Positions 8,945 to 49,071 of a DNA stretch of 64,000 nucleotides are shown here, piece after piece. Both the position numbers and the translations under genes were made by a program. Origin of the DNA: Chiloscyllium plagiosum. Taxonomy: Eukaryota. Below the pieces are notes generated by a model, which saw only the letters and a list, made by a program, of their open reading frames with translations, had not been told where the DNA came from and made no database searches. Where the stretch lies: assembly GCF_004010195.1 (NCBI RefSeq), contig NC_057718.1:78666935-78730934 (forward strand), given 5' to 3'. The stretch's first letter is position 1, and the number at the start of each line of letters is the position of its first letter.

Positions 8945-9584
8945 TCAAAGCTATCATTTGGGAACATCTTCACAACACAGTGTGCACCAGATGATGAAGG
9001 CAGTTTACCAATACCTCAAAAGGCAATTAAGAAAGTTCAATAAATGTTGGTCTTACCAGAAATGGAAACATTTCCAAGAACGTATACAGGACATTCAGAC
9101 CAACTAATCTAATCCAGTGGTTATACTCTACACTAACCTCTTCCTCCAGCCTTCATTCGTCTAATTATTTCAATGTATTCTTCAATTCCTTTCATTGCAA
9201 TATGCTTGGCTGGCCTCCTCTTAAATCATCTATGCTTGGGTAAAGAGGTTTTCCTGAAATTACTGAACATATTGAAATTAACCTGCTAACTGTATGAATG
9301 TTTGCAAGTTTAATAATTTCTCCCTGTAACTTTTCAGCATTTGCCATTTACAATTTGATGCCAGCTGCAAGTTTAGAAATTGTACTCCTGATTTCAAAGT
9401 TCACATTGTCAATGGAAGGGTAAGCAACTAGTGCAATGTCACATTGTTTCTAGCCTTTCAACAGTCTGAGTAGCTTTAATCCTGGGCTGTGTGTATTCTG
9501 TAGGCCAGCCAGTTCGCTATTTTTCTTTTGTCATGGCTGAACTTTCAGACATTCTTTCAAAGGTCAAACTCCACATGACAATAC

Positions 9585-9724
9585 CTTCACAGTTTGATAT
9601 CAGACAGTATTCCCAGCGTTTATTCACATCTTGAGTGTAGCACCAGGGCCCTGTGGAATCATTGTCAGGATTTCTGCAATAGTTTTCTTCCAGGTCAGCA
9701 TGTGGGCTATTCTCTGGGGTGTAA
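9585..9724 (-). CDS. plg: Plasminogen exon 5 (kringle 1, second half), 140 bp
   Basis: ttttcaattag|...|gtattg. Encodes [47 protein letters not shown], with the NYCRNPD and PWCY kringle signatures. Confidence 0.97.
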
Positions 9725-10609
9725 CTAATTGAAAAGAAACAGTGTCACTTTAAAAATGTGTTCATTTGAAGGCAATACATGTTTGGCAATAGACAAATGG
9801 AGTATTGAAAATTTAAACACAATGCAGTCAAGATTTTGTACATTTATATATTGTATTTCAAAACTCAGACACATCCTAAAGTGCTTCACAGCCTGCAAAG
9901 TACTTTCAAAGTGTAATCACAATTATAATGATCTATTTCAGTTCCTAATTCTTATGGTCTTGATGTGGCCAAAACAGTGAATGTTTTTAAGAAGTTACAT
10001 ATTGTCCTTCGGGCTAAGGAGTCAAAGGGTATGCTCAAAGAGAGAGCAGGAACAGGATACTGAACTCGATGATCAGCCATGAGCATTTTGAATGGTTGAG
10101 CAGGCTCAAAAGGCCAGGTGGCCACCTTCTGCTCCTACTCTCACAGTTTCTATAACAATTTGGTCCATTATACGAGTGTTGACGTTTTGAAAGAATTATG
10201 CAATTAGCCCCACTTTGGCTCCTTTTTCCATATCAAATGGAAACTTTAGCTTTGACGATGTATATCTAATTTGTTTTAGAAAATTAGTATTGAATATTTC
10301 CATCAACCTTTCATGTAGTGCTTCCCAGATTAAAGTAACGCACTAAATAAAACAAATTTCTTCTTATCTCCTCTCTGATTCTCTGGTTGTAAATTTTTGT
10401 CGTGTCTTTTCTGAACCCTCAGCCAATGAAATTGTTTTCTCTCTATTTATTGTATCAAGATCCTGTTTAATCTCTCCTTAATATTCTCTGAAGTGAGGAA
10501 CAATCCTAGCTTCTCCAGTTTCTCTACGCAACTGACATTCCACGCCCATAACCGTTCCAGTAAGTCTCCCCTTTACCCATTCCAAACATTGCTAACCTTT
10601 CTAAAACTC

Positions 10610-10831
10610 GATGCTGAGAATTGGATGTGAAAACGTTTATCATGAATCATGAACATTAGCAATGTCCCTTCAACTGATATTCTGTTTAGCTTAGAGAGTC
10701 ATAGAGCCATAGAGATGTACAGCAGATGCTGAGAATTGGATGTGAAAACGTTTATCATGAATCATGAACATTAGCAATGTCCCTTCAACTGATATTCTGT
10801 TCAGCTTAGAGAGTCATAGAGATGTACAGCA
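10610..10831. repeat. Tandem duplication, 115 bp + 107 bp units
   Basis: gatgctgagaattggatgtg...gatgtacagca occurs at 10610-10724 and again at 10725-10831. Confidence 0.95.
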
Positions 10832-11200
10832 TGGAAACAGACTCTTTGGTCCTACCAGATATCCCAACCCAATCTAGTTCCACCTGCCAGCACCTGGCCC
10901 ATATCCCTCCAAACCCTTCCTATTCATATACCCATCCAAATGCCTCTTAAAATGTTGCAATTGTACCAGCCTCCACCACTTCCTCTGGCAGCTCATTCCA
11001 TACACGTACCACCCTCTGCGTGAAAAAGATGCCGCTTAGGTCTCTTTTATATCTTTCCCCTCTCACCCTAAACCTATGCCCTCTAGTTCTGAACTCCCTG
11101 ACCCCAGGGAAAAAAACTTTGCCTATTTACCCTATCCATGCCCCTCATAATTTTGTAAACCTCTATAAGGTCACTCCTCAGCCTCCGATGCCCCAGGGAA
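10809..11200 (-). mobile_element. CR1 LINE 3' end (5'-truncated, young)
   Basis: agtcatagag microsatellite-like tail plus CR1 3' UTR and ORF2 end (accctctgcgtgaaaaag..., ctctataaggtcactcctcagcctcc). Confidence 0.9.
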
Positions 11201-12095
11201 ATTTCTCAGTAACATTTTCCATCTGTACTATATTAGGAAAGAATAATGCTTTTTCTAAGCATTTTTTAAAATGTAAAGTCAATCGTATGTAACAAAAATA
11301 TATTGCAGTTAAGATGGTTGTAGTTGTTTTATTTTGCCACTAAGGAGAGCCATTTTACTAAAAACTGTACTTGCCTTGCCAAACAAAATATGGAGTGATT
11401 ACTCCGAAAAGAGCACCCGTTCATGTGCAGAAACAGGTTGTGACGTGAGCTGTAACAGACTGCAGGAAATATCTGTACATGCCTCACTGACATCAACATC
11501 TGCATGGCACCTATTGTGGCTACAAGCCAAGGAAGAGCTGAGGAGGAGACTGGGAACATGCTGGCTGGGGAAGCTGGAAATGAGGGGTCTGGGGAGACAG
11601 TGAGGATGCAAAATATTCCCTCCCTGGCAAAATAATTATCTGCCACATTGCCACCCAGCTATCATCTACTGCAGCGGAGGGCAACACACAGATGCAGTAT
11701 CCAACAGTGCTTGGAGCATGTGCATAAAGTGTGCTGGTGATGGACAGTTCTTTGTTTGTCAGACTCACAAACAGTGAATTTTTGGCCAAGTGGAGGAAGC
11801 AACTGGACTGGGCATCTCTGGAAATATATTGTGTAGACCACAAATCCCAGAAAATAACTTCAAATAGGAAACACAGATAACTTTGCAGACAAATGCATCA
11901 CATTTTGTTTGTTACAGTGACAAGGCACCGCAAATGCATGTTCTTGTACATATGTGGGCTCTCCACCAGTGTTCACAATAAACACAGCCAACAAAGTAAG
12001 AGGAGCCTAACTAGATCCAATAATGGATTTTGCTCTTTAAAATAGTTTGTAATAAGGAAGCTAATTAAAATCATTATATTTGAAACAACATGAAC

Positions 12096-12192
12096 AGTTC
12101 TGAAGAAGGATCACTGGACCTGTAACATTAACTCTGGTTTCTCTGCACAGATGCTGCCAGACCTGCTGACTTTTTCCAGCAAATTCTGTTTG
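12096..12192 (+). mobile_element. Penelope-like family C single arm (decayed)
   Basis: gttctgaagaaggatcactggacc...gatgctgccagacctgctgactttttccagcaa, homologous to 8531-8733. Confidence 0.7.
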
Positions 12193-12667
12193 TAGGTTGT
12201 AAAGTTTGGTTACTAGGACCAGAGGATTTATACAATTGCGGCTTTAGGTACACAAATATAGTAATCTTGTCTGCAATGTTCTTGCATTATGTCTGAATAG
12301 CAATGGGCTAATTCAGTGTAGTGTTCTGGTGTCTTATTATTAATGCAATAATAACAATTGTTTGGCATGTCATTAGTACACTTTTAGCAAAAAGCAACAC
12401 ACACTTGAATGGAGGCGAGTTCTGAATTCTTCAAAGTCCTTTCGTTTGACCCTATTGAGCTCTTCTTTAAACATAATCTTGCCTGCTTTCAATACTTTTG
12501 TAATTGTTTACACATTGAGAGAAATTATGTTAAATACAACAAGAAGCCAATGAATTAAGTACACAATATGGTCCAAATATATTTATCAATTACTTGTAAT
12601 ATTATTTAGTGCGTTTTTAATCCTGAGTCAAGTTAAACATGTTAAATGAAGAAGATTAAAGACTGAC

Positions 12668-12782
12668 TTTGGATTGTGTGGTGTGTTGCTATCCCATCTT
12701 TGACAGGCTCTATTAGAAATGGTTTTTGTTGCTGTTCCTCTGTATGTTTCACCGTTGCCGAACTTGCACTCCAACAGAAAAG
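12668..12782 (-). CDS. plg: Plasminogen exon 4 (kringle 1, first half), 115 bp
   Basis: ttcttccttag|...|gtcagt. Encodes AFLLECKFGNGETYRGTATKTISNRACQRWDSNTPHNP, with the kringle motif C..GNG..YRG...T.....CQ.W....PH. Confidence 0.96.
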
Positions 12783-13494
12783 CTAAGGAAGAAGAAAAGA
12801 AAGGAATTGGTAAATTGTTAAATAATGTTAAGCTTTGGAAACATTTGAACCAATAGAGGCTGCAAGTTTGGCAAGATTTGGTAAATCAATGAGTGGAGAC
12901 AAGGGGAGAGAGAAGGGTATTCACCTGAGAAATGAGAAATAAACAATGTCAGGATGCGATAGACAGTACAAATTCAAAAGTGAATCAACAGGGATTATAG
13001 CATTTACTATAATAATAAAAGGAAAAAACATCTTGTATCTGAATTCACATAGCATTCAAAACAAAACAAATGAACTAGTAGTGCATATAGCATCAACGAC
13101 GTACAATCTGATAGCCACTCGTAAACGCATGGCTGCAGGATTACATAATATGGACCTAAATATGAAAGAATACGTGTCACTTCAGAAGGACAAGACGTTT
13201 GGAAAATTTGGAGTGGAAGTCCTGTTACCTAATCATGGGGTTAGCACAACTGATTGGGACGGCCTACGTTCTTGAAACCAGGATGTAGAAACAACTCATT
13301 GAGTCATAAAGTTTTACAGTATAGAAAGAGGCCATCAGCCTATTGTGTCCACTCTTGTCATCAAACATCCGTCTATCTTAATCACATTTTCCTGCATTAG
13401 TCCACATCCTTGTACGTTATGATGTTTCATCTAAATTGTTCTTAAATGTCATGAGGATTTCTGCCTCTATCATCCTTTAAGACAGTGAGTTCCA

Positions 13495-13826
13495 TAGAAC
13501 ATAGAAGAACATAGAAAAATACAGCGCAGTACAGGCCCTTTGGCCCTCAATGTTGTGTCGTTCCAAGCCCACCTAACCTACACTAGCCCACTATCCTCCA
13601 TATGCCTATCCAATGCCCATTTAAATGCCCATAAAGAGGGAGAGTCCACCACTGCTACTGGCAGGGCATTCCATGAACTCACGACTCGCTGAGTAAAGAA
13701 TCTACCCCTAACATCTATCCTATACCTACTACCCCTTAATTTAAAGCTATGCCCCCTCGTAATAGCTGACTCCATACGTGGAAAAAGATTCTCATGGTCA
13801 ACCCTATCTAAACCCCTAATCATCAT
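13495..13826 (-). mobile_element. CR1 LINE 3' end (tail end of chimeric insertion)
   Basis: ORF MIRGLDRVDHENLFPRMESAITRGHSFKLRG...FFTQRVVSSWNALP; tagaacatagaagaacatagaa tail; left TSD copy AGTGAGTTCCA at 13484-13494. Confidence 0.92.
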
Positions 13827-16140
13827 GTGACATACATGTCAAAAATGTTGTAAGGACAGTATCAAACTCATTTTTTTTCAATCGTGGACTATTTCCTCTG
13901 GTGGATGTTGATCATCTTCGAATAGTCACCAACCGGCAGCTCAATCCCATCCTCATCTTCCTGTAGGAGTACAGCTCCAACTCCTATGTCACTAGCATCG
14001 ATGGCGACTTTAAAAGGTTTTGAACAGTTTGGTGTTAACTAAAACTGGTTTGGTGGTTAATATTGATTTCAAATGGTCGAATGCCTCCTGGCATGGTTCT
14101 GTTCACCGAAACTTTGTCTTCTTCTTCGGTAAATCGGGTCATGGTCCCACTACATGGCTGGCGTTTAGAACAAACTTCCGAGAGAATCCGCAGAGTCCAA
14201 AGAATCGAAGCACCTCTTTCTTCGAGGTTGGTTGTGTGTGAATTCCTCGCGAGCCTTTGTCTTTGTGTTCTGTGCAGTCAGCGTTCCATGACCAATGTTC
14301 TGACCCAAGAACGTCACCTCTCCTTTCGTGAATTCCATTTTGTTTAAGTTTATCACCAGTTTTGCTTCTCATAGTTGTTGAAAGAGCTCTGCCAACTGTA
14401 CCATGTGATCTTTCCCGGACTTACTAAAGATCACTACAACGTCCAAATAGACTACACAGTTTGTTAACCCAGCCATAACTCTGGTCATGGGTCTTTGGAA
14501 TGTGGCAGGTGTAATCTTCATTCCAAACAGCATCACTTTAAACTGATATAGCCCATTTGGGATGACGAACACAGAAATTACTTTCACCGTCTCTGATAAA
14601 GCTACCTGCCAGTAAGCACACATTAAGTCCAACTTTGTCACGTAACTGACTTGTCCAACGTTCTCGATACAGACCTCTAATCTAGGAATTGGATGTGAGT
14701 CCGATTTTGTAACAGCGTTGACCTACTGATAATCCACGCAGAATCGTTGAGTCCCGTCAGGTTTGGCAACTGAGACAATCAGCTAACTCCGTTTACTCTC
14801 TCTTGGTTCGATAATGTCCTTGTCGAGCATGGCCTCCACTTCCATCTGACCTGGCTGGCTTTGAAAGGTTTAAGCCGATAGGGGTGTTGTTTGATTGGAG
14901 CAGTATTCCCCACTGAGCTGAAAATTTGTTGCTGGAAAAGCGCAGCAGGTCAGGCAGCATCCAGGGAACAGGACAATCGCGTTTCGGGCATAAGCCCTTC
15001 TTCAGCCCTTCCTGAAGAAGGACTTATGCCCGAAACATCGATTCTCCTGTTCACTGGATGCTGCCTGACCTGGTGTGCTTTTCCAGCAACACATTTTCAG
15101 CTCTGATCTCCAGCATCTGCAGACCTCACTTTCTCCGCAGTATTCCCCACGTCTACTTCATGTATAATATCATTAGTCCTCCCCATCTGATTCTTACATA
15201 TGTCCTCATACTGGAAAAGCAAACCTCTCAACTCCATTTCATGTCCTGAGACACATAGCTTACTAACCTATCCCACTCCGCAAAGACTTCTGCATTTTTA
15301 AAATCTGCTTTGAGGCACATCAAACTCCACGACACCTGGATTTGATTCCTCACCCTGTGGAACAGTAACTATTACCTGTTTCTCCAGTTCCCTGTCTCTA
15401 TAAGGTTTCAACATACTCACATGAGCTACCCAATACAGGTTTTTTCCATCAGACATCTTTACCAGATGGTTTACCTGACTTAACTTTTTCTCAGTTTGAT
15501 AGGGACCATGGAACCTAGCTTTGAAGGGAGCCCCTTCCACTGGTAACAGTACTAACACATCATTCCCACGGGAAAACATCCAAACTTAGGATTTTGTTCT
15601 GCTACCTGCTTCATTCTATACTGTGCCCTCTTCAGGTCCTGTTTAGCTAACTCACCCACTTGCTTTAGTCTCTCCCTCACCTCCGATACATAATCTAAGT
15701 GTGACATTTCCAACGTTGGTCCTGTTAATTTTTCTTTCATTAATGTCAAAGGGCCTCGCACTTCATGCCTGAATATTAACTCAAAGGGAGTGACCCGAGG
15801 AGATTTGTTTGTGGTATCTCTAATGGCAAACAATACAAATGGGATACATTTATCCCAATCATTCGGGTAATCCTGACAGGACACTCCCAACATGGTCTTC
15901 AGGGCCTGATGTCTCCTTTCTAAAGCTCCCTGGGATCCAGGATAATACACACTGGATTTAAAGTGCTGTATACCTAAGCTATCTATAACCTCCTTAAACA
16001 GCCTAGCAGTAAAGTTAGACCCTTGGTCTGACTCGATCTCTCTGGGTAGCCCATACCGTGTGAAGAAAACTACTAACTCCTCTCCCACCCTTTTCACCGT
16101 AATACTCTGTAATGGGATTGCCTCTGGAAATCTAGTACAC
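13827..16140 (-). mobile_element. Gmr1-like Ty3/Gypsy pol fragment (integrase - RT - RNase H), no LTRs, frameshifted
   Basis: Integrase RFPEAIPL...SDQGSNF...GALER and GPY motif (16148-15298), then RT KLDL..AYWQ...PATFQR...YLDVVVI (14641-14369), then RNase H FKVAIDASDIGVGAVLLQE (~14020-13870). Confidence 0.9.
14914..15136. mobile_element. Penelope-like palindromic insertion, family A
   Basis: Inverted arms gctggaaaagcgcagcaggtcaggcagcatcc...; 14 bp TSD GCAGTATTCCCCAC at 14900-14913 and 15137-15150; hammerhead-like cores on both strands at the centre. Confidence 0.88.
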
Positions 16141-16793
16141 ACACCCACAAGTATCCAAAACGGTATACTTGTTCTTGAGGGGAACGGCCGCAGGGGGTCC
16201 CTGCACTGGCTGCTTCCTCCCAGTCCCCCTCACTGTCACCCATCTGTCTGCAACCTTTGGAGTTACTACTTCCCTAAAGCTCCGATCTATGACCCCTTTT
16301 GCCTCCCGAATGATCCTAGGTTCATCCAACTCCAGCTCCAGTTCCCTAACACGGTCTGGAGGAGCTGGAGATAGGTGCACTTCCTGCAAGTGTAATCAGC
16401 AGGGACGACCATGGCATCCCTCACCTCAAACATGTTGCAAGAGGAACATTGCACTGCCTTCACTGCCATCCCTCTAAAAGTAACTTTTTTAAAAAAAACT
16501 AGGTCCAAGAATAGAACAAGCAAAATGCAGCACTTACCTACTTACCACAACGGGTCTTATTATTAGGTTAGAGGAGGAGGGAGGGTGGGAGGCACTACCT
16601 CTGTAGTGCCTCGGTTCCTCTCCTGCGCGCTTTCATAGGGAAAAAAACCTACCCAGGTAAGCTTGCGCTACACCAGCTTCCGGGTCCGCGCCGCACTTTT
16701 TAAAAAAAAACTTTCAAATTTAAACCGTTAAACAAACGTCACCGAGCCTTCCAGCAGCCACTGCCAAACAGCGCTTACCTGCTCCACTGAGAG
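16141..16793 (-). mobile_element. CR1 LINE 5' UTR and ORF1 N-terminus (head end of chimeric insertion)
   Basis: CpG-rich 5' UTR; ORF1 MAVKAVQCSSCNMFEVRD...YTCRKC (Cys motif) and RVRELELELDE (zipper), ending at KNKYTVLDTCG; right TSD copy AGTGAGTTCCA at 16794-16804. Confidence 0.88.
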
Positions 16794-17489
16794 AGTGAGT
16801 TCCAGATGCCCACAACCCTTAGTGAAACAATTTTTCCTCAACTCCCCTCTAAACATTCTGCTCCTTGCCTTTAAAGTGTTTGTCCTGTTTATTGAACCCC
16901 TCTACGAAGAGAATGGTTTCTCCCGATCTACCTTGCCTACATCCATCACATTATACTATAGGAAACCAAATATATTATAGGGAACCTTCCAGAACCAGGG
17001 ACCAGGAGGATGCTGGGAAGGTACGTTTCCCATTTTAAGGTTTGTTCCTATCTGTGGTTTCAGGCTTCTGTGATAGGTCCTGAAACAAACCCCTCGGGGG
17101 TAAGGGGGGACTACTGTATATAGATATTATAAAAAGAACTATTCATGAAGTGAGTATTGGTCCAATAAAAAATACTCTGGTGAATTAGTAATGGAAAATA
17201 ACGGTATAGCTGAGGAATTGAACAAGAATTTTGTATCAGTCTTCACCGTAGAGAGTACTAATCATTGTATAAGCCAAATAGGACTTGAAACACCTAACTA
17301 ACATCACTAGAAAAGCTCTTCCATCTGGAAATAAGGGACTTTCTTGAGGGTGCTACCCAGTTTTTGGTAGTTGCCCCTAAGAGTGTTATCAGAATGTTTC
17401 ATAGAAGTAATACATTCTTAATCTTAAAGTGAATTTGATTTCTCACATGAGGGAATCATGCATTTCAGATGTAATGTAACTAGCTATTG

Positions 17490-19915
17490 AGTATTTTTAT
17501 TCACTTGTGGGATGTGGACGGCACAGGCTGACCAGCATTTGTTGCTCATCCCCAGTTGCACTTGAAAAGGTGGCGGTGAGCTGCCGTCTTCAACCACATA
17601 CTGTGAGTTTACCCACAATGCCATTGGGGAGAGAATTCCAGGATTTTGACACAGCAATAGTGAAGGGAATGCAATATTTTCAAGGATGCTAAATGGCTTG
17701 GAGGGGAACTTGCAGATGACGCAATCCCCAGTGTCTGCCCTTGTCCTACTAGATAGAAATGTTCATGCGTTTGTAAAGTACTGTCTAAGGATCTTTGGTA
17801 AATTTCTGAATTGAATCTTGTAGGTAATATACACTGCTGCAGCTGATTATCAGTGGTGGAGGGACTGGATGTTTGTAGATGTGGTGCCAATCAGATTGCC
17901 TGCTTTGTCCTGAATTGTGTCAAACTTCTTGAGTGTTGTTGGAGCTGCACTCATCCAGAAAAGTGAGACATACTTCATCACACTGTTGACTTTTGTCTTG
18001 TAGATGATGGACAAGCGTTGCGGCGCCAGGAGGTGAGTCACTCACTGCAGTATTCCTAGTCTCTGACCTGCTCTTGTAGACACTGTATTTATTCTAGTTA
18101 AGTTTCTGTTCAATGGTAATCTTCAGGATGTTGATAGTGGTAACAGCATTGAACATCTTAATTGAGATGGTTTTTGCCTGGCATTTGTGTGGTGTGGATG
18201 TTTCTTGCTACTTGTCAGACCAAGCCTGGATTTTATCTGGATCTTGTGCATTTGAGCATAAACTGCTTCAATATCTAAGGAGTTATGAATGGCACTGAAC
18301 ATTGTGTAATCATAAGCAAACATCCCCACTTCTGACCTTATGGTGGTGGGGAGGCCATTGATGAAGCAGCTGAAGTTAGTTGGACCTAGGACACTAACCT
18401 GAGGAAGTCCTTCAGAGATGGAATCATAGAACCTTTAAAGAGCAGTTGGAGGCCATTAAACTTGTCTAGTCTGCAAAGACCCTCTGAAGAATATCGCAGC
18501 CAGACCAACATCCCCACTATACCCATACTTACCATCTAGCCTGCATAACCTTGGATGCCATGGGGCAATTTAGAATGGCAATCCTCCTAATCTTTGGACT
18601 GTGGGAGGAAACTGAAGCACCTGACGGAAATGCATGCAGATACAGGGAGAACATGCCTGAGATTAAAATCCAATCCCTGCTATTGTGAGGCAGCAGTGCT
18701 AACCACTGTGCCACACCCCAGATCTGGAGCTGGGATGACCGACCCCTAACAAGCACAATCATCTTCCTGTGTGCCAGATATGACTCTGACCAGTGGAGAG
18801 TTTGCCCTTATTCCCATTGATTCCAGTTTTGCTAAGGCTCCTTGATGCTACATTCAGTCAAGTGCGATCTTAAGGTCAAGGGCTGTCGCTCTCACCTCAC
18901 CTCTGGAATTCAACTCTTTTGTCCATGTTTGAACCAAGGCAGTAATGAGATCAGGCACTGAGTGGCTCCAGCGGAACCCAAGTGGGCATCAATGAGCAGG
19001 TTATTGCTGAACAAGTGATGCTTGATTGCACTGTTAATGATATCTTCCAGCACTTTACTGATAATCAAGAATAGCCTGATAGGGCGGTAATTGGCATGGT
19101 TGGATTTCTCCTATGTTTTGTGTACAGGACATACCTGGACAATTTTCTATATTGTCGGCTAGATGCTAGTGTTGTTAACTGTCCTGGAACAACTGACTAG
19201 AAGTGTGTCAAGTTCTGAAGCGCAAGTCTTTATCACATTGCTAGAACGCTGTCAGGACCCATAGCTTTTGCAGTATCCAGTGCCTCCAACTGTTTCTTGA
19301 TTTCACATGAAGTGAATCAAATTGGCTGAATGCTTATATCTGTAATGCTGGGGACCACTGGAAGAGGTTGAGATGAGTTATGTACATGGCACTACTGGCT
19401 GAAGATTGCTATGAAAGCTTCAGCCTCATTTTTTGCACTGACATGCTTGGCTCTTCCATCATTGAGGATGGGAATATTTGTGGAGCCTCCTTCTCCAGTA
19501 AACTGTTTAATTGTTCACCATCATTCAAAACTGGACATGGCAGGACTGCGGAACTTGGATCTGATCTGTTGGTTGTGGGATTGCTTAGCTTTATCTATGA
19601 CTTGCTGCTTATACTGTTTGGCACGCAAGTAAACCTGTCTGGTAGCTTCATTTTTTTTAAAAGTATGACTTGTACTGCTCCTGGCATGTCTTCCTGCACT
19701 CTCTATTGAACCAGAGCTGATCCCTGGTTTGATGATAATGGTTGAGTGGAGCCATGAGGTTACAGATTGTGCTGGATTACAATTCTGCTGCTGTTGATGG
19801 CCCTGCTGGTGATGAGTGTCTCATGGATGCCCAGTCTTCAGTTGCTATATCTGTTTGAAGTCTATTATATTTTGCACAGTGATAGTGCCACATATCACTT
19901 TATAGAAGATTCTCA
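17490..19915 (-). mobile_element. CR1/L2-group LINE (RT to 3' end), degenerate; tail resembles the SacSINE1-like SINE tail
   Basis: ORF2 remnants MFAYDYTMFSAI (YADD-like) and HLLAPQRLSIIYKTKVNSVMKYVSLFWMSAAPTTLKKFDTIQDKA; 3' tail at 17490-17560. Confidence 0.75.
18420..18718 (-). mobile_element. HE1/V-SINE-like SINE (degenerate), nested in LINE
   Basis: gtggcacagtggttagcactgctgcctcac head and ggtttcctcccacagtccaaaga-like core, as in 43245 and 50742. Confidence 0.8.
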
Positions 19916-20125
19916 GATGGTAGATTACCTTCCCTGAGGAGCATTCATGAGCTAGATGGGTTTTTCTGACACTCAAAATCATATCATGGTCATCAGTAAG
20001 TTCTTAATTTGAGACCTTTTAAAAATTGAATTCAAAGTCCACCATCTGCCGTGGTCAGATTCAAACCTGGCTCCCCAGAATATCAGATGAGTTCTGGATT
20101 ATAGTCTAGCAATAGTACCAAGAAG
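19915..20125 (-). mobile_element. SacSINE1-like SINE, 5' part
   Basis: Homologous to 3740-3914 (ccaccatctgccgtggtcagattcaaacctgg...tagtctagcaatagtacca). Confidence 0.6.
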
Positions 20126-20369
20126 CTGTACCCAAGAGAATAATAGAGGACTGTTCCTGCATAAAGATGACCAGTTTTTGGTATTTGGCTCTAAGTATTT
20201 ACATAGACATATTAAGTAATATGTAATGAATAAATTCTATGTCAAAAACAAAATCTATCTTTTATCTAAGATCTCATGCGGGCATCCATCCTCACTTGGT
20301 ACCAATAACACTGACAGATATCCCACATGATTCCAGCAGAAACAAACACATACAAACAAAGTAACATCA

Positions 20370-21430
20370 CTGAAACAGCTGTAAATCAGGAAATGGAAGC
20401 AAGGAACTTAAAAAAACTACAATCAACAGGGATTTGGTACTGAGCAAATTATTCAAGCTGTGCCTGACAAACCCTTTGATCCTGATGGACTTCAAAAGAG
20501 GTGGCTGGTGAGATAATTAATTTTCCAATATTCCTTTGACTCAACATAAGTTCCATTCAACTGGAACGCAGCAAAAGTAACTTCTTTCTTCAAAAGGAAA
20601 GGAGAGAGAAATCAGGAAACTTTAGGCCAGATAGCTTAGCATCTGGCATAAGGAAGATATTAGAAGTTATTTTTAAAGACATTGGGAGAGATTTAATGGG
20701 GAATGACAGTCTCATTCAGAGATCACACTCAGGGGCTCAGAAATGTTGAGCTTTGCTTCCATTCTGACAGTTGTTTTGTAGCGCAGAACAAGTTGTTGGA
20801 GATAAGTAGTGTAACTGATCTGGGGAGAAGTAGATTGGGGTGTGTGAGTTGAGTATGGGGTCTGCTTAATATTTATCAGGAGTTAGGTCATGTATTTAAT
20901 AGTCTAATTTTTCCTAAGCAACTATTTTACATAATTTCATTAGAACCATCGGAAGTCTCCAATTTAAATGGAGAATTTCAGAGGGATCACAGCACAGTGA
21001 AATTATCAAATAGAAAATTCAATTTCCTGGGCAATTCCTTCTGAGTGGGCTGTGATGGGGATTCTGCAAGGATCCCATGTACAATTGTGATCTATGCTGG
21101 CATAATGGCTGCCTGGACCAGCAGAAAATAACAAGGCACTTAGAAAGCTTCATGGCAATCCAGCAGAGCCAACCTGGCTTTATGAAAGGGAAATCATGTT
21201 AACCAATTTGTTGGCATTCTTTGAGGAAATAAAATATGATGTGGATAAAGTGGACTCAATAGATGTACTGTACTTAGATTTCCGGAAGGCCCTTGATAAG
21301 ATACCACATCAAAGGTTATTGGGGAAAATAAAAGCTCATCTCATAGGGGATCATAAATTGCCATGGGTGGAGGATTGTGTAGCTGGTAGGAAACTGAGAA
21401 TAGGTGCAAATAGGCCTTCTTCTGACAGCT
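20370..21430 (+). mobile_element. CR1 RT fragments (interrupted ~20690-21130)
   Basis: MLTNLLAFFEE...DVLYLDFRKALDKIPHQRLL is a CR1 RT motif; upstream remnant resembles GPDG...DW..A.V. Confidence 0.75.
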
Positions 21431-34440: not shown

Positions 34441-36320
34441 CTGAATGAGGAGGATAGCCTTGGATGACAAAAGGCTATAAATGGGCTTGTCAGGTGAGCT
34501 GAATAGTGGCAAATGGAATTCAGTCTACACAAATATGAGGACACTTGGACTTGGACAAACAAAGGAAGGGAATACATGAAAAACAGTAGGGCCCTGAGAA
34601 ACGATGAGGATCAGAGGAATCCTGGTGGCATGTACACTGGTTCCTCAACTTGTCAGGACAGCTGGATAAAGTGGTTATGAAGGCATATGGGATCCTTGCC
34701 CTTAATAGCTGAGGCACTGAGTTTAAGAACACAAGGGTTATGCAGGAATCGTACAGAACATTAGTTAGGCCATGGCTAGCACATTATGTGCAGATCTGGA
34801 ATCCACATTATTGGACTGATGTGATAGCATTGGAGAGGGTGCATGGGAGATTTATCATGATGTTCTCTGGGCAGGAGAGTTTCAGTTATGAAGAGAGATT
34901 GGATAGACTGTGGATGTTTTCCTTAGAGTAGAGGAGATTGAAAGGAGACATGACTGAGATGTATAAAGTTCTGAGGGCAGAGATAATGTAGACAGGAAGA
35001 AAATATTTCTTTTGATGGAGGGAACAATGACAAGAGGCATACATTTTAATGTAAGCTGCAGAAGGTTTGGAGGAAATTTGAGGAAAACGTTTTCACCCAG
35101 AGAGTGGTGGGGATCTGGAACTCACTGCCTGTAAGGGTAGTGCAGAAATTCTCATAATATTTAAGAAGTATTTACTTGTTCACTTGCGATGCCAAGATAA
35201 ACACAACAAAGTGCTGGAAAATGGGATCATAATCATTAGATGGTGGTTTTTGACCAGCACCAACTCAATAGGTCAAAGGGACTTTTTCTGGTTGAGAGAT
35301 CTCCAATCCACGTAGACATTGTAAAAGTAAGATGGGCAAAAATTGGCCTAGATGAGAAATGCATTGAGTGTATTTGGGATCGTTTCTTAAAAGGGCATCT
35401 TCTGGGCCAACCAGAGAGCTGGTTACATTTAAGTTGTTTTATGCAGTAAGTTAGAACTAATTAATAACCTCACGGTGAAGTCACCCCAAATTAAAAGTAA
35501 CTGTAATATGATTGAATTTTACATTCAGTTTATGGGAGAAAAGAATGTGTCTGAGATTATTTTTGAAAATTTAAATGAAAACAATTGTGTGATTATGGAA
35601 TCAGAACTGAATGAATGGAGTATTAGGCTAATTGGGTTAAAGAATAAGTCCGTACAGATGCAGATATTGAAAATAATACCTCAGAATACTTATATGTTCT
35701 TGATGTAATGAAAAAAAAGTACTTTATATGTAATCATCAGTAGATATAATTATATATTCATATATTTCAAAATGTAGAAATCTTTGAACAGTATTCAAGA
35801 TACTTTCAAAGAGTAAGAAAAAAATTCCCCAGAGGTCAAACTGTAATTGTGCAAAACAGGTGGCAGGTCAGAATAATAGACAGAATATAAAGATAAAAAG
35901 AAAATAATTAGGAAAGGGGGAAAATTAAATTGCAAGTGAAAGCTAACCAGAATACTCAAAATGTACAGTAAGCATTTCAATAAACGTTTAAAGAAAAGGC
36001 AAAAGCTGACTGAATGTTATATAAAGTGAGATTGGAAAATTAATAATGTTAAGTGAATTGAACAGGCATACTATATCAATCTTTATTATAGAGGATGCAA
36101 GTAACATGTTAGAAGCAGTGATAAAATAGGAAGTAGAAGGGAAGGAATACCGCAGGACAATTATAATCACCAGATAGTTGGTGCTGAGTAATTGATTGGA
36201 GCTGCAGACTGACAAGCACTTGGGCTGTGATGAACTTCACAATGGAGTCTTAAACTAAATGGTCAGTGACATAGTTGATGAATTGGCTTTAATTTTCCAA
36301 ATCTCTTTATTTGGGAATGG

Positions 36321-36606
36321 GTTGAAACTTGGAGGCTGGTACAATTACAGCATTTAAGAGGCATTTGGATGGGTATATGAATAGTTGAAACTTTATTGCT
36401 GGAACAGCACAGCGGGTCAGGCAGCATCCAGGGAACAGGAGATTCGACGTTTCGGGCACAGGCCCTTCTTCAGAATCATTCCTGAAGAAGGGCCTGTGCC
36501 CGAAATGTCGAATCTCCTGTTCCCTGGATGCTGCCTGACCTGCTGCGCTGTTCCAGCAATAAAGTTTCAACTTTGATCTCCAGCATCTGCAGACCTCACT
36601 TTCTCC
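36321..36606. mobile_element. Penelope-like palindromic insertion, family A variant, with captured CR1 fragment
   Basis: 14 bp TSD TTATTTGGGAATGG at 36307-36320 and 36607-36620; near-perfect inverted arms 36384-36571; hammerhead cores on both strands at 36442-36513. Confidence 0.88.
36478..36513 (+). ncRNA. Minimal hammerhead ribozyme motif, family A
   Basis: auuc CUGAAGA A GGGC cugu GCCC GAAA UG UC gaau, with a 4 bp stem I (auuc/gaau). The minus-strand twin (36442-36476) keeps the palindromic ACGU. Confidence 0.68.
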
Positions 36607-37578
36607 TTATTTGGGAATGGTCCAATTAGATTTGAAAATACCAGAAGTAGTACCTTTCCTTAAAAAGAAAGGGAGCTGGAAAGTAGGAAACTGCAGGCCT
36701 GTTAGCTTAATACTGGTCAGAGGGCAAATGTTAGAAATTATTATGAAGGATACAACAGGAAACTTAGAAAGTTTCAAGGTAATCAGATAGAATCACTGAG
36801 GTTTTGTAAAAGGGAAATCATGTTTAACTAAACAACAGGAGTTCTTTGAGGAAATAATGTGCCATGGGTAGGAGAATTGGTGGAAGTACTGCAATAGGAT
36901 TCCCAGGTGGCATCTGATAAAGTGCCACATCAAAAGTTATAGTAGAAAGTAATGGATCTGTGGATGGCACACAGTCGATAACATTTGTTTATTCACCAAA
37001 CCAGTGATGAATTCTTGCATTAGTTTTGACATTAAGTTTGATCACTAATCAAATTGTACTTCCATTAGTAGACCATAAGTAAAAAACAGAGTTTTTCCAC
37101 TACCAGTTTAGCTCTGACTGTTCTTAAGGGAATTTATATCATGATTTATATAAATTATTTGGATGTGAATATAAGAGGCATGGTTAGTAAGTTTGCAATT
37201 GACACCAAACTTGGTGGTATTGCAGATGAAGAAGGTTACCAAGGAGTACAATGGGATCTTGATCAACTGGGCCTATGGGTCAAGGAATGGCAGATGGAGT
37301 TTAATACAGATAGATGCATTTTGGTAAAACAAATTAGGGCAAGACTTACACAGTCAATGGCAGAGCCCTAGGGAGTGTGGTTGAACAAAGAGACCTAGGT
37401 TTGCAGGGACATAGTTTCTTGAAAATGGCATCACAGTTAGCAGAGTGGTGAAGAAGACATTTGCCATGCTTGCCTTCATTGATCAGTATTTTTTGGAGAT
37501 ACCGGTGTTGGACTGGGGGGAACAAAGTTAAAAATCACACAACACCAGGTTATAGTCCAACAGGTTTAATTGGAAGCA

Positions 37579-37613
37579 CACTAGCTTTCGGAGCGACGCT
37601 CCTTCATCAGGTG
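37579..37613 (-). ncRNA. Minimal type I hammerhead ribozyme motif (antiparallel copy)
   Basis: Exact reverse complement of 37889-37923. Confidence 0.75.
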
Positions 37614-37888
37614 ATAGTGGAGGGCTCAATCCTAACGCACAGAATTTATAGCAAAACTTTACAGTGTGATGTAACTGAAATTATACATTGAAAAATTGAT
37701 TGTCTGTTAAGCCTTTCATCTGTTAGAATACAGTGATAGTTTCACTTCATGAAAGAAGTGAAACTATCGCTGTATTCTAACAGATGAAAGGCTTAACAGA
37801 CAATCAATTTTCAATGTAAAATTTCAGTTACATCACACTGTAAAGTTTTGCTATAAATTCTGTGCGTTAGGATTGAGCCCTCCACTAT

Positions 37889-37923
37889 CACCTGATGAAG
37901 GAGCGTCGCTCCGAAAGCTAGTG
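37889..37923 (+). ncRNA. Minimal type I hammerhead ribozyme motif (PLE-associated)
   Basis: cac CUGAUGA A GGAGC guc GCUCC GAAA GC UA gug: conserved core, 5 bp stem II, palindromic AGCU in place of stem III, 3 bp stem I. Confidence 0.75.
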
Positions 37924-38639
37924 TGCTTCCAATTAAACCTGTTGGACTATAACCTGGTGTTGTGTGATTTTTAACTTCATTGATCAGAGTATTGAGTACA
38001 GGAGTTGAGATGTCATGTTACAGCTGTACAAGCCACTGGTAAGGCCACATTTGGAGTACTGTGTGCAATTCTGGCCTCACTGCTACAGGCAGCAGTTATT
38101 AAACTGGAAAGAGTGCAAAAATGATTTATTAAGATGTTACCATGACTGGAAGGTTTGAGTTATAAGGAGAGGTTGTTTAGGTTGAGACTTTTTTCCCTGG
38201 AGTGTAGGAGGTTGAGGGATGATCTGGTAGAGGTTTTATAAAATCAGAAGGGGCAGAGATAAAGTGAATTTCCAAGGGACTTTCCCTGGAGAAGGGAAGT
38301 CCAAAACTAGAGGACACAGGTTTAAGATGAGAGAGAAGATATTTAAAAGTGAGGGTCAACTTATTCACACAGAGCATGGCGCATATGTGAAACAAGCTGG
38401 AAAAGCAAGTGGTAGCAATGGCTACACTTAGAACATTTAAAATACATTTGGACAGTACATGGGTAGAAAAGATTTAGAGGGATATAGGTTAAATGCAGGC
38501 AAATGGGACTAGTTCAGTTTAGGAAACGTGGTCAGCATGGTGTTTCCCCAGTGTCTGACTTTATGACAAAATCAAGTAATCATATGCATAACTGTAAAGA
38601 AGTGTTTATTTCCTGCTTTTTAAAAAAATGATGGTCTTA

Positions 38640-41620
38640 CAGAATCTACTAGAACACGACCGAATGGCTCCTCAAATACTGATAGAGGAATCAGAGATGC
38701 TGGTTTAATCACATGTTGAAGTTTATCTAAACTTGACAAGTATGACATGTTTTACAAAACTGTACTACACCTTTATGTTCAGGTAAAATACCCGTTTATG
38801 GGCATCTGAGTTTTTGAAACCCCCTCCCATGTTCTGCCCGAGGAATCTCATGAGCTACTCAGAATATCTCTTCATGATAGCCGGATCATGCAACTATCTG
38901 ATGTACAACCACTCATTCTTTATCTTTGGTTCACTTCTTCATCAGCACTCCATTCTTAAGAACTAGTGCTTTGTAATTCTTTCAGCCTCTATCTCAGTTT
39001 GAGATGACTGTGCTAATTTATTTAATTCAGGGTCTGCTTTTTGTGCCATAATTGGGCACATCATAGCAAACACACCACCTGGATTATCTTCACCCTTTAG
39101 GAAAGTATCAGTTACACTTTCACTTGGTTGTGGTGTCACATCAACCCATATTGATGGATTTTATTTAACCATTGCCCTGGTAACCACACCAGGGAAGGAA
39201 AAATACCAGGAAGCTGTTCCTGTAACTGTCCTGCTTCTTGCAGTTCCTTTTGACATTCTGTAATTTTGGGTGAAGCTACTAACTTTAGTCCTGCCAAATC
39301 ATTATCCAGAAGTAAGTTTACTCCTGTAACATTAATGTTTTTACTACTTCCCTTGATAACAAATCACATTTTAGTTGTACTTTATAAAATGGCATCAGAA
39401 TATATTCTCCATCAATCCCATTTATTAATACTTTAGCTATCACTGCAATCCCTTTCTCCAGTGAAAGTGATTGTGTTGCCCCTATACCTTTTAGTATGGT
39501 TATGGGTTTAGCTACCTCACCTGAAGAAAGAGCAGTCACCTTCTCTTTTTACAAAAATCCTGCATCCTTCTCATCTACCTTATACATCTCTTTTGTAATG
39601 ATAGAATTCACCAGGGGCCTTTTTGTTATAGTTACAATCTGGTCTGTGGTGCTATCCTTTTATGTTCCTTGTTTAACTCATTTTTACTGACTTCTATAGT
39701 CCCACCTGAATGCACATGGCCCAAATTATTACAAGAGAAATATTTAAGCTTCTGAACTTCACCTCCACTCTCAGCCATTTTCTTTCTAATCTGAGGAGGA
39801 GTTCTTGGGACACTCCCTACTGTCCCCTCCCTCCCTGCCTTCCTTTCATTCTCCCATTTTTTATTCCTCTTGAACATCTGAAGATGATGGAACAAAGGTT
39901 CATGGATCAGTTCATAATCATCAGCTGTTTGTCTGGCCTTTACTACCCTTTGACCTTTTACATGAGTTCTGATTGCAGAAGGTAAGGAAGGTTTAAATTA
40001 TTTGAAAAGAATAATTTCCCTGACACTCTTCCCAGCCTTTAACATTCATATCCACATATAAAAATTATATTCTGTTTAACTTTTTCAAACTCACTATAAG
40101 TATGTCCAAGTTGGTCCCCTATGTTCCGAAACCTCTGCCTGTACGCTTCTAGGACCAACTCATATGCACCTAGAATTGGCCTTTTCGTTTCATCGTAATA
40201 CCCAGAATATTCTTCTGACATGGATGCATTATTCTCTTGTGCTTTACCTTTCACTTTTCATGGGCAAGACCTAATCTGCTTTTGACCACCTCATTTCTGT
40301 TGCTATATCCTCAAATGACATGGATTAGCCGGGCCACTGCACAGAGAGGAATCAGTTGGAGACATGCTTCTGAAAGTGAGATGTTAGCCAGGAGGCTGCA
40401 GAGACATGGAGGTACCAGTTGCTGACAGGGGCTAGGAATGGTCAATATATAAAAAACTGCTAACATGCAGGGGAAAACAGCTTGTGAACTAAAAATGAGC
40501 AGAGTCCAGGTACTGTTGGATGCCAATCATATTGTTGAGAAAAAAAAGTAAGAAAGGAGGTAATGCAGAAGCCTTATTTGGATGAGGGGCAATGAGGTAG
40601 TGCTCCCTAGCTCCTTGATCCAGAGTCAATAAAGTAAAGACAAACAAAAGTGAATGAACCCTAGTCAATGGGAAAAAGACACCATGACTCGAGAAAGATA
40701 AGGAAAGAGGATAAAAGAAGACCCTCGAGGTATACAGGCAGCGACAACTCTGGAGATCCACCATCGGTGCGGTGCGGTGTGAAAGCAGCCTGTGGCCAAT
40801 GTCAGTTCTCCTCAGCAGCAGCCAAACAGTTATCCAGATCGGGTATCATCAGGTGACTACTGAAGGAGTGTCAGGGGACTCGAGAGGGTGTATAAATAAG
40901 TTTTTAATACAGTTTGTGTGAAAATATATAAGCTGCAGTTTGTAAGAGAGCATATAAAGAGTGCATAGTTTAATACATTAATAACGTTACTTACAAAGCT
41001 AGAAGAATTGACTCTTCTCCTTTGTGGCTGCACACACCAGTAGCTGCAGCCAGCTCAAACAGGCATCAACGCATGAAAAAGGTTTCCATGTCATTCTGTT
41101 CAAATTTTGGCAAAGCCTGCACAACCTTAAACATCTCCAGACTGAACTGTGGATTTTGACTAAAAGGTTCCTCTTCCAAGTCTTCCCTATCATTTGGTTT
41201 AGCTTACCCAAGCTACATCATTTTAAATTTAAATTCCTGTTCTCTCTCTCTCTTCTTCCTCTCTTTCTTCTCTTCTGCTCTTTCTCTTTTTCTTACCTCT
41301 CTTTCTCTTTTATGTACTTTGGGATTCCAGTTCTTTAAGTTCTAACTCTCTTTGGAATTTCATTCTCAATTTTCTAATTTCCATTTGCCTGAACTGCAAG
41401 TCAAGGTTCATTAATGCATCTGATAAACTATCTGTCCCACTCGGCCTCTCTACTTTCACTAAACCCAACTGTCCCATTATTAAATGTTTTTGGCTTGATC
41501 TGTCACCTTTAATCGAGTCTGCTGGCTATCTTTATTATTTTATCTTTAGTTAGACTTTGCAACCGCACCAGGGAAATTTCTGACATTTTCAAAAACACTT
41601 TAACAATTTCCAGTGCCATC
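38640..41620 (-). mobile_element. Gmr1-like Gypsy gag-protease-integrase(N-term) remnant, interrupted ~40298-41071
   Basis: gag MALEIVKSVF..., E/K/R-rich coiled coil, FKVVQALPKFEQNDMETFF, ILGAYELVLEAYRQRFRN; protease-like PITILKGIGATQSL; then an integrase Zn-finger-like remnant (~38900-38640) with no RT in between. Confidence 0.72.
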
Positions 41621-41730
41621 TTAAATCTGGGTACAAACCTGATGTCTCATTACCCACCTTATAACCAAAATCCAAATCCAGACCTACCTTGTCTGTGTTT
41701 CAATATCCTGGACTGAAACCCTTAATGTAT

Positions 41731-48298: not shown

Positions 48299-49071
48299 TA
48301 GGAGAAAATGAGGACTGCAGATGCTGGAGATCAGAGTTGAAAAATGTTGTGCTGGAAAAACACAGCAGGCCAGGCAACATCCGAGGAGCAGGAGAATCGA
48401 CGTTTCGGGCATAAGCCCTTCTTCAGGAATGAGGCTGGTGTGCCAAGCGGGCTGAGATAAAAGGTAGGGGGTAGCGGATTTGGGAGAGGGGCGCTGGGAA
48501 TACGATAGGTGGAAGGAGGTGAGGATGAGGGTGATAGGCCAGAGAGGGGGTGGGGGCGGAGAGGTCGGGAATAAGATTGCATGTCAAGAGGGTGGTGCTG
48601 AATCCGGGGCGCTCATCTTCCGCCTAGGAACCTTCCAACCACACGGGATGAATGTAGATTTCTCCAGCTTCCTCATTTCCCCTCCCCCCACCTTATCTCA
48701 GTCCCAACCCCCGGATTCAGCACCGCCCTCTTGACCTGCAATCTTCTTCCNNNNNNNNNNNNNNNNNNNNNNNNNNNNNNNNNNNNNNNNNNNNNNNNNN
48801 NNNNNNNNNNNNNNNNNNNNNNNNNNNNNNNNNNNNNNNNNNNNNNNNNNTCCGCCCCCACCCCCTCTCCGGCCTATCACCCTCACCCTCACCTCCTTCC
48901 ACCTGTCGTATTCCCAGTGCCCCTCTCCCAAATTCCCTCCCCCCTATCCTTTATCTCAGCCCGCTTGGCACACCAGCCTCATTCCTGAAGAAGGGCTTAT
49001 CCCCAAAGTGTCGATTCTCCTGCTCCTCGGATGCTGCCTGGCCTGCTGTGTTTTTCCAGCACCACATTTTT
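48299..49071. mobile_element. Penelope-like family A element with inverted pseudo-LTRs and GIY-YIG C-terminus
   Basis: 15 bp TSD CACTTCTGGAGTACC at 48284-48298 and 49072-49086; central LIFRLGTFQPHGMNVDFSSFL (48610-48680, +); hammerhead core intact on minus at ~48397-48429. Confidence 0.87.
48751..48850. other. Assembly gap (100 N)
   Basis: Run of exactly 100 N. Confidence 1.

Follow-up and report, generated by a model that had tools for sequence, protein, structure and literature searches.

How does a stretch of decayed Gypsy DNA come to be sandwiched in a young CR1 element? The question is raised by a chimeric element in Chiloscyllium plagiosum, which occupies positions 13484 to 16804 of the window (i.e., the whole stretch of DNA analyzed, 64,000 nucleotides [nt] of contig NC_057718.1, positions 78,666,935 to 78,730,934). 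Read on the minus strand, it consists of a 5′ part of CR1, which is a long interspersed nuclear element (LINE); a filler from the pol region of a Gmr1-type Gypsy element, which is a long terminal repeat (LTR) element; and a CR1 3′ tail. We consider it likely that a single recent event placed a piece of dead genomic Gmr1 inside a young CR1, with a CR1 end on either side, a reading common to the routes through a read-through RNA, post-insertion repair, and a double template switch that are weighed below. The product encodes nothing functional.

Insertion site and empty site

The insertion and the older CR1 fragment that hosts it comprise the following features.

16805 to 16956, minus strand: upstream half of the host, an older CR1 3′ fragment; aligns with a CR1 copy near 34985 to 35126
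16794 to 16804 (16790 to 16804 in the 15-bp reading), no strand: upstream copy of the target-site duplication; repeat match and empty site in organism B
13484 to 13494, no strand: downstream copy of the target-site duplication; repeat match and organism B contig
13323 to 13483, minus strand: downstream half of the host CR1 3′ fragment; the alignment goes on from the same motif

An identical 11-mer at 13484 to 13494 and at 16794 to 16804 brackets 3.3 kb inside the old CR1 fragment, and the repeat can be extended to 14 matches in 15 positions (13480 to 13494 versus 16790 to 16804). The duplication appears to be 11 to 15 bp long, i.e., either 11 bp with chance matches or microhomology next to it or 15 bp with one change. 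Taken alone, its recurrence counts for little, since the 11-mer is a motif conserved in CR1 and has a further exact copy at 35126 to 35116 of the window. The host CR1 is, however, continuous across the insert when aligned to the window copy at approximately 34985 to 35174, in which the motif occurs once. The site was also compared with contigs from organism A (two studies) and from a relative, organism B (one study); contig evidence here and below is that among the 23 contigs listed, which have 227,229 further pieces beside them, and long contigs favor unique sequence. A 1,479-nt contig of organism B aligns with 12900 to 13484 (25 differences) and then with 16795 to 16995 (6 differences), skipping 3,310 nt. 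This contig is an empty site with a single copy of the duplication. Organism A contigs from both studies align with 12900 to 13522, each with 8 differences and 1 gap, and the flank, the duplication, and the CR1 tail are therefore joined in organism A too; the first of these studies is possibly the source of the window sequence, and the second is separate. The repeat match, the continuity of the host CR1, and the empty site together bear out the first-pass annotation, which had described an 11-bp direct repeat around a 3.3-kb insertion in an older CR1.

Flank divergence is 3.5% from organism B (42 of 1,193 sites) and approximately 1% from organism A. Because organism B carries the empty site, the insert is at most about 2% old, barring lineage sorting.

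Parts of the element and their relative ages

From its 5′ end to its 3′ end, the element contains the following parts (UTR, untranslated region; ORF, open reading frame; RT, reverse transcriptase).

16470 to 16793, minus strand: CR1 5′ UTR, 324 nt; precedes the ORF1 start and is covered by family contigs
16141 to 16469, minus strand: CR1 ORF1 residues 1 to about 110, with zinc-finger-like CxxC pairs and one change of frame near 16356; the best relatives are 84% and 91% identical
15151 to 16140, minus strand: Gmr1-type integrase core (from the TRF motif), integrase C terminus, and linker, left edge within about 10 nt; rve match (E = 1.4e-7) and tblastn map
14900 to 15150, no strand: nested 223-nt palindromic repeat (14914 to 15136) with a 14-bp duplication (14900 to 14913 and 15137 to 15150); inside the Gypsy filler, with many copies in the window
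13827 to 14899, minus strand: Gmr1-type RT and most of RNase H, with 6 in-frame stops and several frame changes; RVT_1 (E = 1.8e-15) and RT_RNaseH (E = 2.9e-9) matches
13578 to 13826, minus strand: last 81 residues of CR1 ORF2 and the stop, open frame; 77% identity to P0129
13495 to 13577, minus strand: CR1 3′ UTR with a short 7-mer microsatellite tail; read from the sequence, with flank-plus-tail contigs of organism A from two studies

The element keeps both a 5′ part and a 3′ part of the CR1 type. We take the ends to be CR1 from their ORF1 type and their tail type, the element itself containing no CR1 RT. Positions 16469 to 16144 align with residues 1 to 109 of the ORF1 relative P0121, and all eight matches to the ORF1 head are ORF1-like, the best of them bearing a GDSL/SGNH domain. 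The CR1 5′ part ends at ORF1 residue 110 of 308; the GDSL/SGNH (esterase) domain, which spans residues 144 to 291 of P0121, is missing from the element. Family-contig depth drops to the flank level past approximately 16825, and position 16793, which is the edge of the 5′ UTR in the element, may not be the true first base of the CR1 family. At the other end, 13829 to 13581 align with ORF2 residues 860 to 942 of P0129, a protein with APE and RT, and the 3′ UTR (83 nt, folded in a single run without a shuffled control) carries 7-mer repeats; an octamer tail repeat is described for amniote CR1 (PMC4316615). The lost CR1 middle amounts to approximately 200 ORF1 codons and 860 ORF2 codons, or roughly 3.2 kb, in place of which there are 2,313 nt.

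These 2,313 nt are co-linear with Gmr1-like polyproteins from 16139 to 13871 in tblastn, matching approximately residues 781 to 1474 of a 1,549-amino-acid relative. The integrase lies ahead of the RT, as it does in 83 of 84 relatives in which both motifs occur, and this order defines Gmr1-like elements (PMC3587641). In a comparison with 48 long Gmr1-like relatives, segments of the filler reach 45 to 70% identity with the best one. The rve match lies just under the cut-off, the Integrase_p58_C and SH3_Tf2-1 matches are weak and below it, and no close protein relative of the integrase was found, the best being 51 to 58% identical. There is no LTR, gag, protease, or integrase zinc finger inside the element, and no long direct repeat suitable as an LTR pair around the filler occurs within 9000 to 21000. 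The filler is a decayed pol fragment, not a complete LTR element. The P0121 and P0129 maps, the domain matches, and the polyprotein map thus agree with the first-pass annotation on the order CR1 head, Gmr1 integrase-RT-RNase H, CR1 tail and on the junctions between them; its further statement that both partners share one orientation and that no LTR lies inside also stands, all matches being on the minus strand.

The CR1 shell and the Gypsy filler differ in decay, a point that goes beyond the first-pass annotation. Invariant columns are broken at 14 of 92 positions in the filler (3 of them by stops), whereas the CR1 ends have 2 of 88 broken (Fisher p = 0.003, or p = 0.02 after trimming 8 residues per fragment edge); the filler was scored over five of its ten frame segments (600 codons), with five short segments left out. 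In a leave-one-out comparison, none of the 48 long Gmr1-like relatives reaches the rate of the filler (maximum, 0.042), and the CR1 ends are no worse than their own relatives (8 and 6). The 600 codons contain 6 stops, with 1.2 to 1.7 expected at 1.8 to 2.2% decay (P = 0.001 to 0.009) and 4.5 to 5.5 at 7%. On balance, these patterns suggest that the filler was already a dead genomic copy when it was captured.

A filler dead at capture argues against the nesting of a live LTR element at this site. A working Gmr1 that entered a full-length CR1 and then lost its LTRs, gag, and protease, along with most of the CR1, through two deletions would call for no unusual enzymology, and nesting is common. 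Such an element should be younger than the CR1 around it, yet the filler is clearly more decayed, and both large deletions would have to fall within a divergence time of at most about 2%. We regard this history as very improbable. The first-pass annotation had already judged it unlikely, on the grounds that both LTRs would have to be lost; the judgment holds, and its reason shifts to a filler older than the surrounding CR1.

The two halves of the filler are not alike. The RT/RNase H half (13871 to 14842) contains all 6 stops and 10 of the 14 broken invariant columns, while the integrase half (15301 to 16139) runs through 280 codons with no stop; the observed/expected CpG ratios of these halves are 0.69 and 0.26, respectively. 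CpG content by part of the element (ratios of 0.26 to 0.74) was uninformative. It is conceivable that the filler is itself a mosaic, built from two Gypsy copies.

The nested palindromic repeat, which was overlooked in the first-pass annotation, accounts, with one copy of its own duplication, for 237 of the 2,313 filler nt. It contains two inverted cores that we take to be hammerhead-like. An Rfam search returned 7 weak matches, none at the gathering score and no hammerhead among them. The presumed motif, read with PMC6155905, indicates that the repeat is probably Penelope derived (i.e., a Penelope-type end module). It differs from the majority of the other window copies at 8 of 205 positions, a mild hint that it arrived with the donor. 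Other copies of this repeat family are numerous in the window (e.g., 36383 to 36606), and another fold-back repeat, Penelope-like by eye, is inserted in a CR1 fragment at approximately 37511 to 37978.

A second, much older Gmr1-like element lies 22 kb away on the minus strand (approximately 36950 to 41700), with a SCAN/gag-like region, a protease region, and an integrase N terminus. It is broken by approximately 1.4 kb of other repeats at a point no more than about 15 nt from the pol position at which the filler starts, which is probably a coincidence. As the donor of the filler, this element is ruled out by its identity of only 54% (102 of 188 positions of the common stretch).

Routes to the chimera

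The route that we tentatively place first combines a read-through RNA with one template switch. Elsewhere, a short 5′-truncated CR1 tail would have inserted, in sense orientation, into a dead Gmr1 within its RNase H region, and a read-through RNA from that locus, ending in a CR1 3′ UTR, would have been a substrate for the CR1 protein. Target-primed reverse transcription at the present site would then have proceeded through the tail (332 nt) and through 2.3 kb of dead Gmr1, nested repeat included, before switching once, inside ORF1, onto a CR1 RNA and copying on to the CR1 5′ part (654 nt). Since the template would already carry a CR1 tail, one switch would be enough. The CR1 3′ UTR is a proposed recognition site of the RT (PMC4316615, PMC3747384), and L1 experiments have yielded both same-orientation insertions from two templates and retrocopies of RNAs with a LINE piece at their end (PMC11702581). 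All parts of the element belong to abundant families. CR1 3′ fragments in particular are extremely abundant (a rough summed tail depth of approximately 1.6 million versus 9 to 21 for single flank contigs), and tails inside dead Gypsy copies should therefore be common. The duplication, the empty site, the shared orientation, and the age asymmetry are observed directly at this locus; from these we infer that there were a source locus, an RNA intermediate, and a template switch.

The first-pass annotation had proposed two template switches; worked out for this element, the RT would leave CR1 RNA after 332 nt, copy RNA of a dead Gmr1, and return to CR1 RNA in ORF1. Duplication-flanked, co-oriented tripartite products are on record for a fungus and for mouse (PMC2104539), and template switching has been reported for stringent LINE clades too (PMC4476161). 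The scheme needs two jumps as well as free RNA of a decayed Gypsy copy, which we judge to be an unlikely partner compared with abundant RNA, and tripartite structures may also arise from two independent events (PMC4476161). Its standing as the simplest route is not supported, given that one switch or post-insertion repair yields the same product, and we consider it unlikely.

Several observations weigh against a read-through RNA of dead Gmr1 or against the age gap on which the single-event reading draws. The source locus was not seen; the near-identical interior in organism A fits a single copy at least as well as two, and the listed interior pieces from organism B are 11 to 14% divergent. The filler bears no mark of an RNA step, being co-linear with pol, with nothing spliced out and no splice or poly(A) mark. 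In described chimeras, the 5′ part is a full-length RNA, unlike the switch inside ORF1 proposed here (PMC2104539). The excess of stops weakens to P = 0.05 to 0.10 if the insert had a decay time of 4%. The parts are distinguished neither by stops alone (0 of 190 codons in CR1 versus 6 of 600 in the filler; p = 0.34) nor by stops and frame changes taken together (14 in 2,076 nt of filler versus 1 in 573 nt of CR1; P = 0.13); the eight filler frame changes are our own count, and family contigs differ in length at four of these places.

The same product could have formed by DNA repair after insertion: a full-length CR1 would have inserted first, and a later break would have removed its middle of approximately 3.2 kb, which was then patched from a dead genomic Gmr1. 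This would be easiest if one of the ends at the break invaded a CR1 tail homologous to it at the donor locus, copied into the Gmr1, and then joined the ORF1 end. Repair accounts for the young CR1 ends, for the old filler with its nested repeat, and, through tail homology, for the shared orientation, and patches templated from distant loci are on record as class 2 templated sequence insertions (PMC5110952). The 5′ junction offers a further point. Just upstream of it, one proxy copy that is 54% identical to the filler shows a patch of likeness of 20 to 28 nt, a feature that would be in keeping with DNA annealing; at three of four settings, at most 2 of 593 other head positions score as high, and at the fourth, 11 of 593 do. 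The patch was picked after the fact, however, and was not reproduced at either junction with protein-derived profiles of 30 and 171 relatives, which gave 0 to 5 nt in three tests and, in the fourth, 2.4 bits over 30 nt, a value equaled at 38 of 295 other positions. Repair also presupposes that a large deletion-insertion occurred within a divergence time of at most about 2% and that both of its ends fell inside a single 4-kb element. We view repair as possible and as nearly as good an account as the read-through RNA, behind which it stands closely. Splicing as the origin of the 5′ junction was set aside, no fitting donor/acceptor pair being apparent by eye without the parent DNA.

Copy number bears on whether the hybrid moved as a unit, i.e., whether it formed elsewhere, was transcribed from its CR1 5′ UTR, and was copied here in trans. 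Both cis-acting ends are kept, and bipartite non-autonomous LINEs exist, including the CR1-derived Ag-Sponge (PMC5786205). Organism A yields two unbroken, near-identical interior contigs, one of 334 nt with 4 differences and a depth of 17.4 (flanks, 9.4 to 20.3) and one of 288 nt with 5 differences and a depth of 25.7 (flanks, 5.2 to 20.7). The other listed interior pieces are approximately 10 to 14% divergent, including all four from organism B (11 to 14%). The near-identical filler is thus present in organism A at about one to two copies, and the depth fits one at least as well as two. Two copies would suit a remobilized hybrid, and one source copy elsewhere may exist; the unbroken contigs at about single-copy depth speak against such a hybrid. 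None of 281 fetched proteins fuses CR1 and Gypsy parts, which is weak evidence, the frames being broken. Neither contig depth nor these proteins give any sign of an amplified hybrid family, and the mobile family envisaged by the first-pass annotation is not supported. A remobilized hybrid appears improbable, as does the broader notion of a small young non-autonomous family in which the CR1 5′ UTR and 3′ tail serve as a "cargo vector" for dead LTR-element DNA in shark genomes.

An assembly artefact, with real CR1 ends and a middle joined from another locus, has in its favor that all parts are high-copy repeats and that neither inner junction is bridged by any of the 23 contigs, so that both are known from the assembly alone. 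There is no gap nearby (the only one in the window is 100 N at 48751 to 48850) and no long junction homology to mislead an assembler, and the near-identical interior copy in organism A differs about as much as the flanks do. We therefore regard an artefact as very unlikely. One raw RNA run (X21; 3,677 reads, 53 of them at ≥99%) contains reads of the family and no junction among the reads listed; we make no expression claim from it.

Surroundings, known relatives, and significance

Kringle-coding exons of a plasminogen-family gene lie at approximately 12650 to 12780, 9600 to 9690, and 1880 to 1970, on the minus strand like the chimeric element, which is probably located in an upstream intron of this gene (upstream exons were not located). 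A 97-nt direct repeat at 10610 to 10821 (99% identical, 115-nt spacing) represents a recent tandem duplication. Related DNA was not found in viral contigs, and the metagenome contigs gave, among the matches listed, one unrelated locus at 37% identity.

Part of SVA is of retroviral origin. As in this L1-mobilized composite (PMC11702581), an LTR-element fragment is here carried on LINE machinery; SVA, in contrast, forms a large family that is active and has a poly(A) tail, whereas the element described here is one copy with CR1 ends. Closer in structure are the tripartite chimeric retrogenes WEIRD-MgSINE-MGL of Magnaporthe and B2-U6-L1 of mouse (Gogvadze et al. 2007, PMC2104539), which share with it three co-oriented parts fused directly, a 5′-truncated LINE at the 3′ end, a short duplication, and a single copy. 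The 5′ part in the present case differs in being a LINE piece that ends inside ORF1 instead of a full-length cellular RNA, and the middle differs in being a long, decayed pol fragment of an LTR element with a nested repeat. Bipartite non-autonomous LINEs (i.e., RIME, NARTc, Bov-A, and the CR1-derived Ag-Sponge; Kojima 2018, PMC5786205) likewise join LINE 5′ and 3′ parts without the middle. They are multicopy families that arose by internal deletion, whereas the element carries foreign filler of 2.3 kb and an ORF1 that is broken, with about one to two interior copies by depth. The filler would also suit the class 2 type of templated sequence insertion (Onozawa and Aplan 2016, PMC5110952), with a patch from a distant locus, a deletion at the site, and no duplication of the patch's own; such insertions are described for human DNA at random sites, unlike the present case, in which both ends lie inside one young LINE. 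With Gmr1-like Gypsy elements (PMC3587641), the filler shares its domain order and 45 to 70% segment identity; unlike them, it is decayed pol only, without LTR, gag, protease, or integrase zinc finger. A published element with a CR1 head, Gypsy pol, and CR1 tail was not found in a literature search with partial coverage (without Repbase, most subscription journals, and supplements).

The chimeric insertion is real and well dated, is probably present as one copy, and looks like a one-off accident of a known general type and not a new mobile family. As one dead copy, the element has no likely function. If several copies exist, they would form a LINE/LTR hybrid family of a kind that the literature search did not find described. 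The value of the element lies in its being a dated record: with an empty site in a relative and a filler older than its shell, it shows that DNA of a dead LTR element can be moved within a young LINE. If the read-through route is true, upstream DNA could be made copyable by each of the very many CR1 tails that shark genomes contain.

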